Below, one piece after another: positions 1 to 8,092 of a stretch of 64,000 nt of DNA. The stretch is from an uncultured delta proteobacterium (GTDB lineage Bacteria > Desulfobacterota > Binatia > UBA9968): assembly GCA_963737905.1 (NCBI GenBank), contig CAVTUQ010000002.1:640001-704000 (forward strand), in the 5' to 3' direction. A program made the position numbers and the translations under genes. Under the pieces are notes generated by a model. That model did not search any database. It worked only from the letters and a program-made list of their open reading frames with translations, and had not been told where the DNA came from. Positions within the stretch are counted from its first letter, which is position 1, and each line of letters starts with the position of its first letter.

Positions 1-2077
1 CGTACGATTTTGGCCGTTGCTTTCAACTGACGTACTGGTGGCATCGGTATCTCACTATCGAGCACGACTTCTCGTGTTGGATCGAATCCCGCGCTGGATA
101 ACCGCTGCAGCACCTGCCTAGAGTCTTTCTCCACCACTGCCCTGTTGACAATATAGGCGCGTGAAATAGTTCCCTCGATTTCGTAAAGCCACGAAAAGGA
201 ATCGGGAAAATGCCCAGTCCGACGAGTGCCGTTCTCGGGCAGAGCTTGAAAAGCCACGAGGTATTTTACGTTAAACGTACGCAAGAGCTTTATCTGGGTG
301 GTGAAGTCAAGCTGGTTGGCGAAGAAGAGGAAATCCGTATACGGCTGTCTTCCCAGCGCGTCGATTTCCTGGAAATAATCAACGCCGTAAAATAGCCCTG
401 CATTAGGGAGAAGGTTTTCAAACGATAGCGCGATTGATTCTTTCAATGTTGGGTGGCCCAGAACGGTTACCGCACTGGGGTGTAAATCTCGGGCCGACGG
501 ATAGTAAAAAAATCGATTCAGGTCACTCTCTCGTGTCTGCAAGACCCGCTTGCTTTCATATACGAAGCCGGGGTGTAGGGGAAATAGAAAACCTTTGTGC
601 GCCCAAGCGAGATCGACAAAAACCGCCGATACCATAAGAACGCCAAAAACGCGTAGCCGGATCGCTTTGGTTTTTGCCAAGACAATCAGCAATAGAAATC
701 CTAGAGAGAGGGCAACTTGCCTATCCAAATTTGACATTGCCCCAGCGATCTTCTTGGCGTGGTCGGGAGACAACACCGGAACCCAGTTTTGAGCGGCGAT
801 GAAACGACCGAGTAGGTCCAGATTGGACCTAGAAAAAATATAGATCCCCAGCCACGCTACGCATACCATGGAGAGAGCTACTAAGGGTCCCTTAACGCTG
901 CCCCCTTCGTTCAATAGCGAATCGCTGAGTCCTTTGAGAGCTACATATAAGAGAAGTACGTAAGTGAAGAAAAAAAATTTTGCCGGGAAACGAAATGCTC
1001 CGAGAAACGGTAGATGACGAAACAGGAAAGGATAAATAGGCGTATAGCTACCCAGAGCAACTATCAATGACGCGGCAACTAAACTCATGAGCGCAATTTT
1101 TTCGCGTAAAGAACTGAAACAAAGCCAGAGACTTATCCCAAAGGCAGAGATTGCTCCCAGATAGTAACTTACGAAAAATGGCGCTTCACGGCCAAAAAAA
1201 AGACGGACCCCCTTGGAGGTCGTCGGGTCAATCTCTTTGTCCAAGAAAAAAAGGTTTAGAAGGTTCATGGGGTTAAGGGACCAGTGCAAGGCCTCTTGCG
1301 GTGGGATTGGTTGTTGTCGCCGCGATTCCAAGAAAAGTTCGGCAGTGGGAAGAACTTGGACCATCACGAGTCCCAAGACTAAAAGATTCGCGGCTATTAA
1401 AACAGACACCAGCTTTCCACGCGATAAGGTGGACACAGACCGCCTCACCTTCATTCCATCGAGAAGAACCAAGACCATGCTGATCGCAAATAGTTCGGGA
1501 GAACCTGCTAGAAATTGCATCGCGGTAATCAAGGTGAACGCTAGAAAATTCTTCCACGAGCTCGAACGAAGAAGTTTCTCCCAGCTCAAAATGACCCAAG
1601 GGAGCCAGACCGCGGTTTGAAAGTGATTCAGCAAGTTGCTCAGGGAAACAACGGTCCCCCCGAGGGCGAACAGCAACGCCCCAACGATTGACAAGTAGGG
1701 AGGAAATTTCCAGTTGCGGCAGAGAAGATAAGCCCCAATCCCTGCTATCAAGAAGTGGAATATGAAAATGGCGCGGATCGCTGGGAAGAAGGACAGAATC
1801 AAAAATAGATGTGCGGCGGATAGAACACACCTGACTGGAAGGCAGCCAACAGCGGAAATCCCATGGCCATGTGGCGGTTCCAGAGGGGCAGCTCTCCAGA
1901 CCGAAAACTCTCATAGAGAGTAAATCGTAATGGATAAAAATATGGACCTAAGTCGCGGAAGAACGGGACTTGTTCTTGGAGAATCAAGTCTTGGCAAAAC
2001 CAGAGGATTAACAAAGATAAGATGAGTAAAGGCATGAGCCTGGATAAACGATTTCCCCAAGCGATTCTCGAATCCAT
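1..2077 (-). pseudogene. YfhO-family / GT-C-type polytopic membrane protein; frameshifted near 1801-1805, appears to run off the window start
   Basis: The N-terminus MDSRIAW...FFRDLGPYFYPLRF...GELPLWNRHMAMGFPLLAAFQSGVFYPPHIYF stops at 1799. Adding one T to the T5 run restores ...IYFLILSFFPAIRAIFIFHFLIAGIGAYLL...AVWLPW...QVLPTAELFLESRR...WSLNP...FRFPAKF, which I translated by hand as open to at least position 541. Confidence 0.75.
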
Positions 2078-2131
2078 AAGTCGTTTGTCGTTTGCTGAGT
2101 AGTTAGAAGACGGTACGGGTAACCAACAAAG

Positions 2132-2166
2132 AAAAAGGGGGTGGTCGCTCACGACTCACCCCCTTT
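2132..2166 (-). terminator. Intrinsic terminator after pilA
   Basis: Hairpin AAAGGGGGTG(A)GTCG-TGAG-CGACCACCCCCTTT followed by a T-run on the minus strand. Confidence 0.7.
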
Positions 2167-2201
2167 GTAAACAATTTCAGCTAAAGTGAGCGATACTCTC
2201 G

Positions 2202-2585
2202 TTACTGACAAGGACCTCCCGTTATCTGTCCAGTCGCACTACTAAAAGTCCAGGTGTCGCTAGCGCAGTTCGCGTGCTGAGCAGTTATGGAAAATGCGTT
2301 CGTTGCAACCGTCGCAGTTGACGTGACATCATTGCTCTTGTTAAACCCTGTCGGCGTTCCACTGGCCATCGCTCCACCCTTGTACGTGAAAGCTTGGGTA
2401 AAATAAGCTTCCTGCGCCGTAGCCGCATTCCTGAGATCGGATTTAACTTGTGCTTCATAGCCACGTTTTCTATAGGCCGAGAACTGAGGAATCGCAATGG
2501 CCGCCAAGATACCTATGATTGCGACAACAACAAGAAGTTCGATAAGTGTAAACCCGGATTCGTTGCGTAACCTTAAATTGTCCAT
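2202..2585 (-). CDS. pilA: Type IVa major pilin
   Basis: Prepilin cleavage site G|FTLIE with E5. FTLIELLVVVAIIGILAAIAIPQFSAYR closely resembles Geobacter PilA. There is a C-terminal Cys pair. Confidence 0.95.
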   Translation of the reverse strand: MDNLRLRNESGFTLIELLVVVAIIGILAAIAIPQFSAYRKRGYEAQVKSDLRNAATAQEAYFTQAFTYKGGAMASGTPTGFNKSNDVTSTATVATNAFSITAQHANCASDTWTFSSATGQITGGPCQ

Positions 2586-2748
2586 TTGTGAAGTACTCCC
2601 TTCGTTTATATTTTCCCGTTGTTAATGTCTCCTGCGACCTCCTACGGGAGTGGAGGTCACAAGCAACTAGATCATAAAAAAACAGTCCCCTATATTCTCA
2701 CCTCCTTGGGCAAAGGCGTTCGGAAGCTAAGACCTAAAAATGTGCACC

Positions 2749-2764
2749 GCAAATCCAGGGCCAG
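2749..2764 (-). promoter_or_regulatory. sigma54 (-24/-12) promoter for pilA
   Basis: Minus strand CTGGCCCTGGATTTGC = TGGC-N7-TTGC (GG-N10-GC), in the gap between the sigma54 activator gene and pilA. Confidence 0.75.
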
Positions 2765-2938
2765 CCTGATTTCGCGAGACGCAGGGTCACAACAGAGGGT
2801 GATTGTGGATTTTCACTTGTTTCAAAAATTGCGACTTATTAAGAGCTTATAGGTTGTCCGAAAAGATCGAGGCCCCTTGGAAGTTTAGCTAGTAGCGGGC
2901 GGGATCATTCTAGTTTACGTAAAAGAGAATTTGGATTG

Positions 2939-2953
2939 TAACAAAATTTGTTA
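2939..2953. promoter_or_regulatory. Candidate upstream activator sequence for the PilR-like domain
   Basis: Palindrome TAACAAA-A-TTTGTTA about 175 bp upstream of the -24 element. Confidence 0.35.
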
Positions 2954-2972
2954 TTGACCCGCCGGCGAATCA

Positions 2973-5003
2973 TCAGCGAGCGACGGCGTTTTTGGAGTTC
3001 AGCAATCCATATTTTTCCAGTCGATGGCGAAGAGATCTATAGTTAATGCCCAAAATCTCGGCAGCTCGCTTTTGTACCCCATTTGTCCTTTTAAGCGCGC
3101 CCAAAAGGATGCATTTTTCATGCGTTTCCAATTCAACGTCCAAAGACAAGCCTTTGGCGAAAAACAGATCCGCACCGCCGGGCGCGGTTCTCTCAAAAAC
3201 CTCGGCTTCCTCGTTGATTGCCACTCCTTTGATATGGGCTGGTAGATCTTCCTCAGTCATAATATTCTTATTCGCGACCGCGACCGCGTGTTCGATTATG
3301 TTTTCTAGCTCACGGACATTTCCCGGATAGCTATATCCCATTAGATGCATCAAGGCGCCGCTAGATATTTCCTCCACTTGCTTGCCGTGGGAAGCTGCAA
3401 ATTTGCGCATAAAGTGATGTGCCAGCGTTGGAATGTCCTCCTTTCTGTTGCGAAGCGGAGGCATCACTATCTGTACGACGTTAAGCCGATAAAATAGATC
3501 TCTCCGAAACCGACCGTCTTCCATCTCTTTGTGCAAATCTCGGTTCGTCGCGGAAATGACCCGTACATCAACTTTGATCTGCTTGCTGCCCCCCACCGGG
3601 GTAAAAGCTTTCTCTTGCAAAACCCTCAGCAGTTTTACCTGCAGGTGGAGCGGCAATTCCCCGACCTCATCTAGAAAAATCGTTCCTTGATCAGCCTGTT
3701 TGAACAACCCCAGATGTTCGGCAACAGCACCGGTGAAGGCGCCACGGGCATGTCCAAACAGCTCGCTTTCAATCAGGGTTTCGGGTATGGCGCCGCAATT
3801 GACCGCAACGAAAGGCATGTTTTTCCTTGATCCATTAAGATGAATCGCGCGCGCGATGAGTTCTTTGCCGGTCCCGCTTTCCCCTGTAATCAGAATGTTC
3901 GTGTTGTTTCTCGCCACCTTTTGAACCAGATTATAGATCTTTTCGATTCCACCACTCTTGCCGATGATACCCTCGAAATAGAAATCCGCATCCTCAATCC
4001 CACCAGGCCTTTGCTCCAGGTCGAACTCCCGCCCCCGACGCAATTCGTCCTCAAGTCGCAACTTCTCCTCAACCTCTCTTTGCTTACTGATGTCTTCGAA
4101 GATCGAGACGTAACCGACCAGCTGGTCGGACGCGTTGCTCAACGGTGCCAGCGTAAGTCGTAGCTGTTTCTGGTGTCCCTCGGAGGCAGCGAACGCGATC
4201 TCATCGGTCGAGATGCTTCGCCCTTCTCGTGAGCCGAGAAAGTTGGGCGTCATCCCTGGAAATATCTCATCCAACTTCTTTCCCTTAACATTTGCCTCTT
4301 GGAGCGACGTCAAATTCTGAGCCTGGCTGTTAAAGTAGTTTATGCGCCCTTCCGCATCCGTAATCGCAACACCGCTACCCACTCCCTGGAGAAGAGTCTC
4401 TTTAAGCGCGTCGAGCTCGAGGTAATCCGTATGTTTTTCCTTGAGCAGTCTTTCAGTCTCACTCAGTTTACGAGCGAGAAACCCGCCCAGTCCGGCAATG
4501 GCGAAAAAACTGCCAATGTTCAGTACCCCCGGCATCAGCTGCGACCATGACACGGGAATGCCGCTGCCGTGATGGAAAGTGCTGGTCCAACTCAGAAGAG
4601 CCACATAGCACAAACTGGAAAACCCTGCGGTAAAGAACGCCCCTCGATAAAACAACAGAATGGCTCCGTTCATCACGGCGAGATTGTAGAGAAAAGGGAA
4701 CGGGCTCGTGAAATCTCCGGTAAGCCAGATAATGCCCGTGATCAAGACAACATCGAAATCGATTTGGAGATGCGCAAAGAAACGAAGGTCAGGGATATAC
4801 GGGAGGACGAGAGCTGATCCAATGGAAATGGCGTAGGCAATGATGAGCGGGATCGAAAGCGTATAAAAAAAATGAAGATCCCCGTTGTTCTGCTTGAAAA
4901 ACTGGAAGAGCGCCGTCGCGCCCAAGAAAAAGGATAAGATGACAACCCGGAGAAAGAGCAGCCATCTGATTTTCTCTGTCAAATCCTTGCGCTCGTCGAT
5001 CAC
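2973..5003 (-). CDS. PilS-like membrane sensor + PAS fused to PilR-like sigma54 AAA+ activator and Fis-type HTH (no HisKA, HATPase or REC domain)
   Basis: N-terminal TM helices with WLTGDFTSPFPFLY; PAS (GVAITDAEGRINYFN...FEDIS); Walker A GESGTGKE; GAFTGA; FLDEVGEL; YPGNVRELEN; C-terminal AAEILGINYRSLRHRLEK. Confidence 0.9.
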   Translation of the reverse strand: MIDERKDLTEKIRWLLFLRVVILSFFLGATALFQFFKQNNGDLHFFYTLSIPLIIAYAISIGSALVLPYIPDLRFFAHLQIDFDVVLITGIIWLTGDFTSPFPFLYNLAVMNGAILLFYRGAFFTAGFSSLCYVALLSWTSTFHHGSGIPVSWSQLMPGVLNIGSFFAIAGLGGFLARKLSETERLLKEKHTDYLELDALKETLLQGVGSGVAITDAEGRINYFNSQAQNLTSLQEANVKGKKLDEIFPGMTPNFLGSREGRSISTDEIAFAASEGHQKQLRLTLAPLSNASDQLVGYVSIFEDISKQREVEEKLRLEDELRRGREFDLEQRPGGIEDADFYFEGIIGKSGGIEKIYNLVQKVARNNTNILITGESGTGKELIARAIHLNGSRKNMPFVAVNCGAIPETLIESELFGHARGAFTGAVAEHLGLFKQADQGTIFLDEVGELPLHLQVKLLRVLQEKAFTPVGGSKQIKVDVRVISATNRDLHKEMEDGRFRRDLFYRLNVVQIVMPPLRNRKEDIPTLAHHFMRKFAASHGKQVEEISSGALMHLMGYSYPGNVRELENIIEHAVAVANKNIMTEEDLPAHIKGVAINEEAEVFERTAPGGADLFFAKGLSLDVELETHEKCILLGALKRTNGVQKRAAEILGINYRSLRHRLEKYGLLNSKNAVAR

Positions 5004-5055: not shown

Positions 5056-6276
5056 CTAAGACACCACGGAACCTAATTGAAAGATCGGCAGATACATTGA
5101 GATAACCAATCCGCCGAGGATCACTCCGAGGACAACCATGATCATGGGCTCCATGAGGGCAGTCAAATTGGCGACAGCATCATCTACTTCGTCTTCATAA
5201 AGCTCAGCCACCTTTCTAAGCATGGTGTCCAGCCCGCCGGTGTTCTCGCCGACGGCCACCATCTGGCAAACCATTGGCGGAAAGATCTTGCTCTCTCGCA
5301 AAGGCTCAGCCACCGTTCTTCCCTGACTGATGCTTACTCGGCTGTCCATGATCGCTTTTTCAATGACACGGTTACCTGCGGTCCTGGCCGTGATCGCCAG
5401 GCCGTCGAGGATTGGGACGCCGGAACTCAGAAGGATAGCCATGTTTTGTGAGAAGCGAGCTACCGCTACCTTGCGCAATAAATCGCCCACAACGGGCAGC
5501 CTGAGGAGGAATCGATCAATGTTCATCTGTCCATTATCCGTTTGATAATAGAAGCGAATTCCGACAATGATTCCGACAAGGGCAAAAACCATATAGAGAA
5601 AGTTGGCGCGGAACCAATTACTGATGTTGATCGTTATCTGTGTGGGCGCCGGCAAGGCTTTACCCATGCTACCATAGAGTTCCGCAAAAACGGGGATAAC
5701 GAAGATCAGTAAGATGGCCACAACGACGATAGCGACTACAATGATCGTGCAAGGATAAATCATCGCCCCTTTAACTTTTTTCTTGAGCTTGTTGGCCTTT
5801 TCGATAAATAGGGCGATTCGATTGAGGATTGCGTTCAACACACCGCCAGCCTCACCGGCTTGGACCATATTGACATACAGGTCGTCGAAGATTTTCGGGT
5901 GTTTTCGAAGAGCCTCAGCCAATGTAGAACCGCCTTCGACATCTTGCTTGATCGCACGCAGGGTATTGCGTAGTACCTTGCTTTCGCTTTGTTGAGTCTG
6001 AATATCCAAGCATTGTACGATGGGTAGCCCGGCATCGATCATCGTAGCGAACTGCCGGGTGAATACAGAAAGGTCCCGGGCCTTAATCTTTTCGCCAAAA
6101 CCGGGGATTTTGATTTCTGTATCCAATCCCCGGCCTTTTTCCCGAATCCGGTTCGGGATCGGCCGAATTCTGCGATCCCGCAGGATCGCAAAAACGGCTT
6201 CCAGATTGGGCGCTTCGACTTCCCCTTTCAGGACTCGTCCCTGCGCGGTTTTTCCTTCCCACAGGAATATTGCCAT
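5056..6276 (-). CDS. pilC: Type IV pilus inner-membrane platform protein (T2SS F family)
   Basis: FTRQFATMIDAGLP, GEAGGVL, MYLPIF motifs; downstream of pilB. Confidence 0.95.
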   Translation of the reverse strand: MAIFLWEGKTAQGRVLKGEVEAPNLEAVFAILRDRRIRPIPNRIREKGRGLDTEIKIPGFGEKIKARDLSVFTRQFATMIDAGLPIVQCLDIQTQQSESKVLRNTLRAIKQDVEGGSTLAEALRKHPKIFDDLYVNMVQAGEAGGVLNAILNRIALFIEKANKLKKKVKGAMIYPCTIIVVAIVVVAILLIFVIPVFAELYGSMGKALPAPTQITINISNWFRANFLYMVFALVGIIVGIRFYYQTDNGQMNIDRFLLRLPVVGDLLRKVAVARFSQNMAILLSSGVPILDGLAITARTAGNRVIEKAIMDSRVSISQGRTVAEPLRESKIFPPMVCQMVAVGENTGGLDTMLRKVAELYEDEVDDAVANLTALMEPMIMVVLGVILGGLVISMYLPIFQLGSVVS

Positions 6277-6364: not shown

Positions 6365-8092
6365 TCAGAAACCCAATGAGAAAACCGATCCAAACCCTTT
6401 GTCCGTATCGGTTACGCGAACGGTTTCCTCAATAGTCGTTAGCCCCTCACGAACCTTCTGGAGGGCGCTCATACGGAGCGTGCTCATGCCCAGTTTCACG
6501 GCCTCTCGCTTGAGCTCAACCACCGACGCATTCCGCAGAATCAACTCCTTGACACCCTCGTGCATGACCATCACTTCATAGATGGCCAAACGGCCTCGAT
6601 ATCCCGTGCCGTTACAATTGGCACAACCTCGCCCATGAAAGGTGGAAAAGCCGGCGCCAACCTCTGTTGGGTCCACACCTAAATTGATCAAAATCTCAGG
6701 ACTCACTTCTCCCGGTTCTTTGCACTTTTCGCAAATTCGCCGTACCAACCTTTGGGCCGCGATCAGATTAATGGACGAAATCAGCAAGAAAGTCTCGACG
6801 CCCATGTTGACCAAGCGATCAACGGTAGAAGGAGCATCGTTGGTATGGAGAGTGCTGAGGACCAAGTGACCCGTCAACGCGGCTTTGACGGCGATCTGCG
6901 CAGTTTCAAGATCGCGAACTTCTCCGACCATAATGATGTCGGGATCCTGTCGAAGAAATGACCGCAGGGCGGCGGCAAAGGTTAACCCGATTTGCTCCCG
7001 GACCTGCACTTGGTTGATTCCAACCAAGTTGTACTCGACCGGATCTTCGGCCGTGGAAATGTTGACGTCGGGTTTGTTGAGCTCCGAGAGCGCGGAATAG
7101 AGCGTAGTCGACTTTCCGCTACCCGTCGGACCGGTGATAAGAATCATGCCGTATGGTTTGTGTATCGCTTCCAAGAAATCTTTAAGGGTTTGCGGATCGA
7201 AACCAAGTTTGGACATGTCCAGTTGGAGATTGGATTTGTCCAATAACCGCATGACGACTTTCTCGCCAAATAACGTCGGTAGTACCGAGACGCGGATATC
7301 CAATTCTCCGCCTACTCCCATCTTTAACTTGATCCGGCCATCCTGGGTGAGGCGCCGCTCAGCAATATCCAGTCCGGCCATGACCTTGAGGCGGGACACT
7401 AAAGGATTTTTTAGCCGAAGGGGCGGACTCATGATCTCCTGAAGAACCCCGTCCACTCGGAACCGCACGCGAAAGATTTTTTCGTAGGGCTCGATGTGAA
7501 TGTCGCTGGCTCGTCGCTTCGCGGCGTCGGCCAAGATCGCATTCACTAAGGTCACTACAGGCGCCTCCATAGTGGCCTGCTGAAGTTCCTGGAGGTTAAC
7601 GTCATCGCTTTCGTGGATAACCTCCATCTCTCCATCGCCAAATTTTTTCAAAACCTCATCGTAGCTTACTCCCCCAAAGCGGTGATCGAGAGTTTTTTTG
7701 ATCGCTGAAGGGGGAGCCAGCATAACCCTCACGCCGTAGCCCGTGATAAACTTCACTTCATTGATTGCAACGAGGTCTGTTGGGTCGGCCATGGCCACCG
7801 TGAGTGTAGAACCAAGAAGTTTTACCGGCACCAGCTGATGCTTTTGAATGATTTGAGGTGGAACAAGGCCAAAGACCGAATCTTCGATTTCTGAGGGACT
7901 TAAATCAACTTTTTCGATACTGAACTGCTTGGCAAGAAACTCGGTCAGGGTATCTTCGGCAGTAAAACCAAGCCGAACCAGCTCTCTAATGACACTGGAG
8001 CCCGTATCACGCTCCTTTTCCTGAGCCTGGACGAGCTGATCGCGGGAAACAATCCCTCCCCGCACCAATAACTCTGCAATACGCGGTTCCAT
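6365..8092 (-). CDS. pilB: Type IV pilus assembly ATPase
   Basis: ASDIHIEP, GPTGSGKSTT, AEDPVEY, LRQDPDIIMVGE and two CxxC pairs. Confidence 0.96.
   Translation of the reverse strand: MEPRIAELLVRGGIVSRDQLVQAQEKERDTGSSVIRELVRLGFTAEDTLTEFLAKQFSIEKVDLSPSEIEDSVFGLVPPQIIQKHQLVPVKLLGSTLTVAMADPTDLVAINEVKFITGYGVRVMLAPPSAIKKTLDHRFGGVSYDEVLKKFGDGEMEVIHESDDVNLQELQQATMEAPVVTLVNAILADAAKRRASDIHIEPYEKIFRVRFRVDGVLQEIMSPPLRLKNPLVSRLKVMAGLDIAERRLTQDGRIKLKMGVGGELDIRVSVLPTLFGEKVVMRLLDKSNLQLDMSKLGFDPQTLKDFLEAIHKPYGMILITGPTGSGKSTTLYSALSELNKPDVNISTAEDPVEYNLVGINQVQVREQIGLTFAAALRSFLRQDPDIIMVGEVRDLETAQIAVKAALTGHLVLSTLHTNDAPSTVDRLVNMGVETFLLISSINLIAAQRLVRRICEKCKEPGEVSPEILINLGVDPTEVGAGFSTFHGRGCANCNGTGYRGRLAIYEVMVMHEGVKELILRNASVVELKREAVKLGMSTLRMSALQKVREGLTTIEETVRVTDTDKGFGSVFSLGF

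Follow-up and report, generated by a model that had tools for sequence, protein, structure and literature searches.

A single-polypeptide PilS-PilR regulator, putatively a membrane-bound sigma-54 activator, encoded next to pilA in an uncultured Binatia bacterium

Domain organization of the fused regulator

The gene described here occupies positions 2973..5003, on the minus strand, of a 64,000-nucleotide stretch of contig CAVTUQ010000002.1 (hereafter, the window), which comes from an uncultured soil and freshwater bacterium of the Binatia. It lies between the pilus genes pilC and pilA, and its product joins in one chain a membrane domain and a PAS domain of PilS type with an AAA+ ATPase and a DNA-binding domain of PilR type; the same architecture is also present in many relatives. 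The features of this fused PilS-PilR regulator are the following:

2973..5003, minus strand: gene of the fused regulator, an open reading frame (ORF) of 676 amino acids with a GTG start, supported by Pfam domains and orthologues
4446..4991, minus strand: PilS-type six-helix membrane domain, residues 5-186 (6TM_PilS, PF25323, 66 bits)
4077..4400, minus strand: PAS domain, residues 202-309 (Pfam PAS, PAS_9 and PAS_4), which aligns with the PAS domain of PilS
3969..4076, minus strand: fusion joint, formed by a post-PAS helix (residues 306-325) and then a variable linker (residues 322-340)
3468..3968, minus strand: sigma-54 interaction AAA+ domain, residues 346-512 (Sigma54_activat, PF00158, 244 bits)
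3861-3884, 3726-3743 and 3666-3671, minus strand: AAA+ motifs, namely Walker A, GAFTGA and Walker B (D445/E446), respectively
3222..3452, minus strand: AAA+ lid domain, residues 518-594 (AAA_lid_14, PF25601, 92 bits)
3009..3131, minus strand: Fis-type helix-turn-helix (HTH) DNA-binding domain, residues 625-665 (HTH_8, PF02954, 44 bits)

The original prediction, made from the DNA letters alone, had described this ORF with its transmembrane, PAS, AAA+ and HTH domains and had quoted three strings from it, all of which was borne out in every detail by the ORF list and by Pfam: FEDISKQREVEEKLRLEDEL corresponds to residues 302-321, GESGTGKE to residues 374-381 and GAFTGA to residues 421-426. It had also proposed that the protein lacks kinase and receiver domains and, in agreement with this, no Pfam match to HisKA, HATPase_c or Response_reg was obtained in the 676 residues at E <= 0.1. 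The fused regulator is not a PilS kinase, because HisKA and HATPase_c are absent and the alignment with PilS stops before the H-box; nor is it a response regulator, because Response_reg is absent and the alignment with PilR begins at residue 139 of the latter. A cryptic receiver or kinase domain was not found either, and the 19-residue linker would be too short to hold one. In NCBIfam, many families of sigma-54 activators matched the protein, all of them below threshold; the top match was PrdR (residues 193-666), far below its cut-off. Transmembrane segments and a DNA-binding domain are predicted on the same chain (from Pfam, the helices of the structural model and the hydropathy profile), and the output is not a winged helix of the ToxR/CadC type but, according to Pfam, an AAA+ domain plus HTH_8.

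At the 3' end of the gene, a run of A at about 2975-2990 of the window (minus strand) differs in length by one nucleotide from the relatives, which alters and shortens the tail of the regulator after the HTH domain. Contigs from two other studies have one base fewer, at 2982 or 2983, and a database protein of 683 amino acids shows 99% identity to the fused regulator. This difference near position 2982 affects none of the domains.

Distribution and genuineness of the architecture

A search with residues 1-345 returned, among the matches listed, 120 cluster representatives with 69-99% identity. Both PF25323 and PF00158 were present in all 120, so that chance is not a plausible explanation for their combination, and HisKA, HATPase_c and Response_reg were found in none of the 120. 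These homologues come from metagenome-assembled genomes labelled Candidatus Binatia or Deltaproteobacteria, and the databases name some of them “response regulator PilR”, which misstates the mechanism, and others “sigma 54-interacting transcriptional regulator”.

The counts for the family and the order of the window genome were drawn from the 30 nearest genomes. A full-length orthologue was present in 15 of the 18 genomes of the family (query residues 1-672, 65-92% identity, no stop codons); in two others the gene is cut by contig ends, and the remaining one (G012) has none. The other two families of the order presented a fused orthologue in 3 of 5 and in 0 of 7 genomes. The class sample comprised 251 genomes from 105 genera; in 74 of these genomes, belonging to 40 genera, the best match covered the membrane domain and extended into the AAA+ domain. 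In the phylum sample (401 genomes, two candidates scored in each), the fused form was observed in at least five genomes outside the family. It should be noted that genomes G006, G012 and G586 are unpublished, and that no conclusion rests on any one of them alone. The search among related genomes that the original prediction had suggested therefore recovered the architecture, but it also corrected the view of the fusion as a lone odd gene, since what we observed is a widespread family.

In a single assembly, a gene of this kind could be an artefact, or a gene in the course of decay after a recent in-frame deletion. Two one-nucleotide length differences with respect to the relatives, both in homopolymer runs and within 3 kb of the gene, could be taken in favor of this explanation, and their repetition over so short a distance does suggest assembly errors. 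However, we consider the explanation refuted: besides the 15 full-length, stop-free genes and the two cut by contig ends in the 18 family genomes, and the 74 class genomes with the same architecture, a contig of 4053 nucleotides from another study covers positions 2121-4579 with about 97% identity and crosses the fusion joint (3969-4076) unbroken. Neither a misassembly at the junction nor a set of close relatives carrying only separate pilS and pilR genes, both of which had been considered at the outset as grounds for abandoning the idea, was encountered, because this independent metagenomic contig bridges the joint and the close relatives carry the fused gene. The absence of decay that had been claimed is likewise sustained by the full-length genes of the family and by their invariant motifs.

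A different C-terminus was considered for five members of the class in which the match ended at residue 595; this was rejected, as inspection of one of them showed the usual architecture, the linker between the lid and the HTH domain being longer. Second copies comprising the PAS-AAA+-HTH part only (about residues 200-670, 49-54% identity) were observed in two genomes, at G009:C149:17848-19236 and G005:C116:12171-13613. Each contains one in-frame stop codon within the match, and they may be membrane-less paralogues or pseudogenes.

Conservation and predicted structure

Conservation was evaluated on an alignment of 30 family members with 38-94% identity to the window protein. Residues G374-E381 (Walker A), D445, E446, R500, R506 and R564 were invariant in the 30 sequences, as were G421, T424, G425 and A426 of the GAFTGA motif and, in the membrane domain, R19, D84, G96 and S100. 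By region, conservation was highest in the HTH domain (0.81), followed by the post-PAS helix (0.62) and the PAS domain (0.57), and lowest in the linker (0.35), whose length ranges from 0 to 19 residues. Residues R19, Q80, D84, T95, G96, S100, F102 and Y106, among others, are at least 80% conserved in 19 fused proteins, and this same set reaches at least 80% in 55 PilS kinases, which argues that the membrane module works alike in both. That these motifs are invariant over such a range of identity, and that 74 of 251 class genomes have the architecture, indicates that the gene is under selection.

These data also bear on the possibility that the regulator is a constitutive, unregulated activator whose sensor half persists as a relic with no signaling role, pilA being controlled in some other way. 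PspF and some other enhancer-binding proteins without a regulatory domain show constitutive activity and are controlled in trans, so an activator of this class would have a precedent. Nevertheless, a relic sensor would be expected to be decayed or lost, and here the membrane and PAS domains are conserved down to 38% identity, with the invariant R19, D84, G96 and S100 in common with functional kinases. We therefore regard this possibility as highly improbable, and a working sensor half as the preferred reading.

The AlphaFold (AF2) model of the fused regulator presented a mean predicted local distance difference test score (pLDDT) of 81 and a predicted template modelling score (pTM) of 0.42. 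Its helices in the membrane domain span residues 2-37, 43-69, 73-95, 105-148 and 153-207, and the PAS strands lie within residues 211-304. The last membrane helix (153-207) continues unbroken into the PAS domain, and the post-PAS helix (306-325) is followed by a disordered stretch (pLDDT < 50 for residues 325-342) that leads to the AAA+ domain. The latter superposes on the AAA+ domains of LuxO and FlrC with a TM-score of 0.94 and a root-mean-square deviation of 1.5 A. In the PDB, neither sequence nor fold searches gave a match for residues 1-310, and in the ESM Atlas residues 1-330 retrieved generic PAS clusters only. With the whole protein as query, the Atlas gave two look-alike clusters whose commonest phyla are Candidatus Binatota and Bdellovibrionota, to be taken as leads only.

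Origin of the two halves

Searched exhaustively, residues 1-345 had 13,653 hits, of which the 150 best representatives were examined. By local search, 11 of these 150 contain the AAA+ half: nine full-length proteins, whose fused architecture was verified by Pfam, and two fragments. Among the other representatives, 29 were scanned; HisKA and HATPase_c were found in 22 of them, HisKA alone in three that are shorter, and the remaining four end after the PAS domain. Given those 22 of 29, canonical PilS kinases are the closest relatives of this N-terminal part once fused proteins and fragments are set aside. The best matches to the AAA+ half alone came from three genomes of the phylum in which the gene order is pilB-pilT-pilC-pilS-pilR.

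With the proteins of one genome carrying the split system, residues 8-321 of the regulator align with residues 14-335 of PilS (27% identity), stopping just short of the H-box, and residues 341-672 align with residues 139-462 of PilR (55% identity). Residues 322-340, which are the “short acidic linker” noticed in the original prediction, align with neither of the two. From these half-by-half alignments, the protein corresponds to a PilS that lacks the kinase core, plus a PilR that lacks the receiver. In addition, the fused gene occupies the usual place of pilS-pilR, with the order pilC-regulator-pilA here and in the fused relatives.

In the trees of the C-terminal half, 19 fused proteins and three PilR proteins were set apart from the 30 other sigma-54 activators of the genome, with a support of 99 under LG+G4 and of 91 under a mixture model. 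Together with the alignments, these trees confirm the early proposal of a PilS-type front and a PilR-type back. Fourteen fused proteins, including that of the window, form one group (support 96), and the other five (P0158, P0157 and those of loci L015, L017 and L019) join the three PilR proteins (support 96 and 97), so that the well-supported branches force two changes between the split and the fused states. The tree of the N-terminal half was limited to the membrane and PAS domains, and a version that included about 50 residues of the next domain was set aside because the added columns are themselves part of the trait. In the limited tree, the same five proteins are placed within the set of PilS kinases and the remaining fourteen lie beyond it, and the well-supported branches force at most one change. 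These trees are unrooted and derive from a quick search, with only three canonical PilR proteins included. Read in this way, the two halves agree, and the sequences point to at least two fusions, or to one fusion plus one fission, as the likely history.

The neighboring genes, the promoter and a candidate enhancer

The elements that surround the regulator gene are listed below:

2202..2585, minus strand: pilA, type IVa major pilin gene, 127 amino acids, with the N_methyl motif; presumed target of the regulator
5056..6276, minus strand: pilC, platform protein gene (T2SSF, 227 bits), 52 nucleotides upstream of the regulator gene
6365..8092, minus strand: pilB, pilus extension ATPase gene (T2SSE, 485 bits, and MshEN)
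2749..2763, minus strand: sigma-54 type -24/-12 promoter TGGCCCTGGATTTGC, about 165 nucleotides upstream of the pilA ATG
2939..2953, minus strand: palindrome TAACAAATTTTGTTA, candidate enhancer (upstream activating sequence), directly past the stop codon of the regulator gene

Pfam searches on the window ORFs agreed with pilC and pilA as the neighbors of the regulator, as had been noted at first sight, and the gene order in close relatives is pilB-pilC-regulator-pilA-YfhO-like gene. In the pilin, G-1, F1, E5 and P22 are invariant among 12 orthologues. The genome also contains rpoN (match to its DNA-binding domain, 210 bits). The regulator is the sole 6TM_PilS match in its own genome. A further scan for this domain took in 106 genomes, the unpublished G586 among them, and the 17 family genomes with any match had exactly one apiece.

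The promoter TGGCCCTGGATTTGC has one mismatch to the consensus. Ten close loci, one of them (L013) from the unpublished genome G006, were aligned from the regulator gene to pilA; in all ten the GG and the TTGC of the GG-N10-GC promoter are invariant, and the palindrome TAACAAATTTTGTTA, located about 190 bp upstream of the promoter, is aligned. Of 15 loci, 13 have the strict promoter pattern within 450 nucleotides downstream of the regulator gene and nine have the palindrome pattern TRAC-N7-GTYA; the respective background frequencies are 0.055 and 0.048 per 450 nucleotides. The target promoter that had been said to adjoin the gene is therefore there, conserved and followed by pilA. The form of the palindrome with an A/T spacer has one site in the 6.7-Mb genome (two matches, as both strands are counted), and in relatives the TAA stop codon of the regulator gene falls within the palindrome. 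The looser pattern GTRAC-N7-GTYAC was not enriched genome-wide (36 hits versus about 55 expected), and no larger regulon was found with it. In the 21 distant loci inspected at the level of the class, pilC is always found upstream and in the same orientation (21 of 21).

Other elements were observed in this intergenic region. A second small palindrome, TTTACGTAAA, is located at window positions 2914-2923 (minus strand), about 20 nucleotides downstream of the candidate enhancer; the three closest loci share it in full, and other loci in part. In the 5' leader of pilA, a conserved AAGGAGGTGAGAA is present in most of the close loci; in the window it lies at about 2695-2707 (minus strand), some 40-50 nucleotides downstream of the -12 box and about 110 nucleotides before the pilA start codon, and there it is followed by a GACCTCC...GGAGGTC hairpin. 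A search of Rfam with window positions 2100-3100, which include the AAGGAGGTGAGAA element, gave nothing meaningful.

Two of the distant loci present particular arrangements. In L015, the pilin encoded downstream of the fused regulator (4517-4753, minus strand) has 78 amino acids and ends soon after the N-terminal helix; in this it resembles the truncated pilins known from Geobacter. In L019, the gene next to the fused regulator starts like PilM and not like a pilin, and the sigma-54 promoter pattern was not found at that locus, so not all members of the family directly precede pilA.

Proposed mechanism

With somewhat better than even confidence, the best explanation for these observations is that the PilS-PilR switch of the pilin gene exists here as a single polypeptide, a membrane enhancer-binding protein that reads pilin. 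The parts of this explanation differ in strength. The regulator is very probably a one-component activator of pilA derived from PilS and PilR; that it senses pilin, as its homology to PilS suggests, has roughly an even chance of being correct. Pilin as the input, allosteric control of the AAA+ domain and an enhancer held at the membrane, all three put forward in the original prediction, are accordingly kept here as proposals.

In the mechanism that we propose, the six-helix membrane domain and the PAS domain of PilS, joined through a short flexible linker to the AAA+ ATPase and HTH domain of PilR, would form an inner-membrane protein that dimerises through the long helix running from the sixth transmembrane helix (TM6) to the PAS domain. 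The regulator would bind the palindrome beside its own gene, about 190 bp upstream of the promoter, and its AAA+ domains would assemble into a ring able to remodel the sigma-54 holoenzyme at pilA, with no phosphotransfer involved in the switch. The input would be the inner-membrane pool of unassembled pilin, read by the membrane domain in the manner of its Pseudomonas homologue: a passage of PMC6058289 that cites Kilmury and Burrows (2016) states that the six transmembrane segments of Pseudomonas PilS interact directly with PilA for autoregulation, and it is from this contact that we infer a pilin input. Binding of pilin would shift the unit formed by TM6, the PAS domain and the post-PAS helix and would keep the AAA+ domains from forming the ring, resulting in negative feedback. 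Since the linker is disordered and varies from 0 to 19 residues, control through the oligomeric state (ring assembly), as in NtrC1 and DctD, would be likelier than a rigid helix register.

The step concerning pilin is the weakest one, because PMC12918730 reports the 6TM_PilS domain (PF25323) from two other kinases as well, RegB and the ammonia sensor GrtK. With architecture and target unchanged, the switch could respond to another input, such as quinone redox state, some small molecule or a membrane or envelope property, and a separate ligand for the PAS domain is conceivable. Against another input, the N-terminal half is closest to kinases from pilC-pilS-pilR clusters and has the same signature residues in the membrane domain as those PilS kinases, and the place between pilC and pilA is kept in the close relatives and in 15 of the 21 distant loci. 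We consider a different input unlikely, although with an appreciable weight.

Returning to the pilin-reading, membrane-bound activator, several other observations weigh against it. A ring ATPase with up to 36 membrane helices would have to reach the polymerase bound at the promoter, which raises a mechanistic question. In the structural model, the values of pTM and mean pLDDT mean that the single domains are reliable and their mutual arrangement is not. Among the 21 class-level loci, an ORF with the pilin signature lies within 1.2 kb downstream in only 15 (one of the 21 loci ends 169 nucleotides past the regulator gene), the strict promoter is found in only 13, and the palindrome in only two, so that the DNA site, proposed from conservation, appears to be lineage-specific. 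Finally, in the soil RNA-Seq run X18 only two short contigs fell on the gene (3076-3276 and 3685-3910), and we did not count them as transcription because DNA can occur in such libraries.

The geometric problem of the membrane-bound ring would be escaped if the membrane domain only kept the activator inactive or positioned (for example, at the cell pole) and proteolysis in the linker freed the AAA+-HTH part. Regulated proteolysis is an established way of controlling membrane-tethered transcription factors, and residues 322-340, disordered (pLDDT < 50) and variable, resemble a protease-accessible tether. On the other hand, no protease gene is conserved in the cluster pilB-pilC-regulator-pilA-YfhO-like gene, the linker is reduced to 0 residues in one family member, and the conservation of the PAS domain (0.57) and of the post-PAS helix (0.62) suits signaling better than a passive anchor. 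Proteolytic release seems to us improbable, and we retain signaling through an intact, membrane-bound chain as the preferred reading.

Comparison with known systems and significance

Enhancer-binding proteins are generally described as soluble, and PilS-PilR is a textbook two-component system. The fused regulator has the same six-helix membrane domain, PAS sensor and AAA+-HTH output as PilS-PilR of Pseudomonas aeruginosa, Geobacter and Myxococcus, and it also matches that system in its place within the pilus cluster and in its type of target, a sigma-54 pilA promoter. In contrast to that system, it lacks the dimerization and histidine phosphotransfer domain, the catalytic domain and the receiver, and thus any phosphotransfer or kinase/phosphatase balance, and its output is covalently bound to the membrane.

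As in the fused regulator, a sensor is joined straight to the AAA+ domain, independently of phosphorylation, in NifA (GAF), DmpR/XylR (V4R) and TyrR/PrdR (PAS); these proteins are soluble, whereas the sensor described here starts with six membrane helices. One-component enhancer-binding proteins are common: a passage of PMC4641369 counts 15 of 37 in Desulfovibrio vulgaris, and the activators of this kind that it describes have soluble PAS, GAF and similar domains. In the corresponding passage of a survey of Clostridiales (PMC6615313), transmembrane regions are reported to be absent from most regulatory domains of enhancer-binding proteins.

Negative control in NtrC1 and DctD depends on a linker helix that locks the AAA+ domains as an inactive dimer. 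The fused regulator also has a helix before the AAA+ domain, and its sequence match to NtrC1 (1ny5) begins at query residue 315, within that helix. Unlike those proteins, its upstream module is a PAS domain and not a phosphorylated receiver, and the length of the linker is not fixed; a mechanism equal to the negative control of NtrC1/DctD type is suggested here by analogy only.

ToxR, TcpP and CadC carry a membrane sensor and a DNA-binding domain in one polypeptide, and their target DNA must reach the membrane. The fused regulator has in common with them the presence of both functions on one membrane chain. However, those proteins are single-pass, have an OmpR-type winged helix and act with sigma-70, whereas the fused regulator would have six helices and an ATP-driven ring and would act with sigma-54. 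As regards RegB and GrtK, the Pfam family PF25323 is what they have in common with the fused regulator, according to the source cited above; both are histidine kinases with other inputs and unlinked to pilus genes.

A full-text search of the literature, supplements excluded, found no description of a transmembrane or PilS-fused sigma-54 activator. The architecture had already been recorded by automatic resources (Pfam lists and the name of one Atlas cluster), so the sequences are known but, as far as found, uninterpreted. It is possible, and we propose it tentatively, that this is the first recognized family of membrane-integral sigma-54 activators, in which an AAA+ ring would form at the inner face of the membrane, governed directly by the pilin pool, and would bring the pilA enhancer and promoter to that membrane.

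If this is correct, the family would represent a natural experiment on what phosphotransfer contributes to a signaling pathway, as the kinase and the receiver were removed while the sensor and the output stayed, and the result persists over many genera. Judged from the protein sequences, the membrane and PAS module of PilS may be able to drive an AAA+ activator directly. With one protein and one output, the fused regulator would also offer a simpler system in which to ask how this module reads its signal.

Additional observations

The YfhO-like membrane protein gene located downstream of pilA is split in the window into 1799-2152 and 3-1802 (minus strand), with the junction near 1800-1805, in a run of five T. 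In the relatives L005, L008 and L011 it is one continuous frame, and L005 has one base more at that point. Either the assembly has a homopolymer error at this point or the frameshift is genuine.

The genome of the window encodes 31 sigma-54 activators. Two of these, at C11:53871-54677 and C19:168875-169681, gave identical AAA+ sequences; this pair may reflect a duplicated contig (the contamination estimate of the genome is 6.7%).

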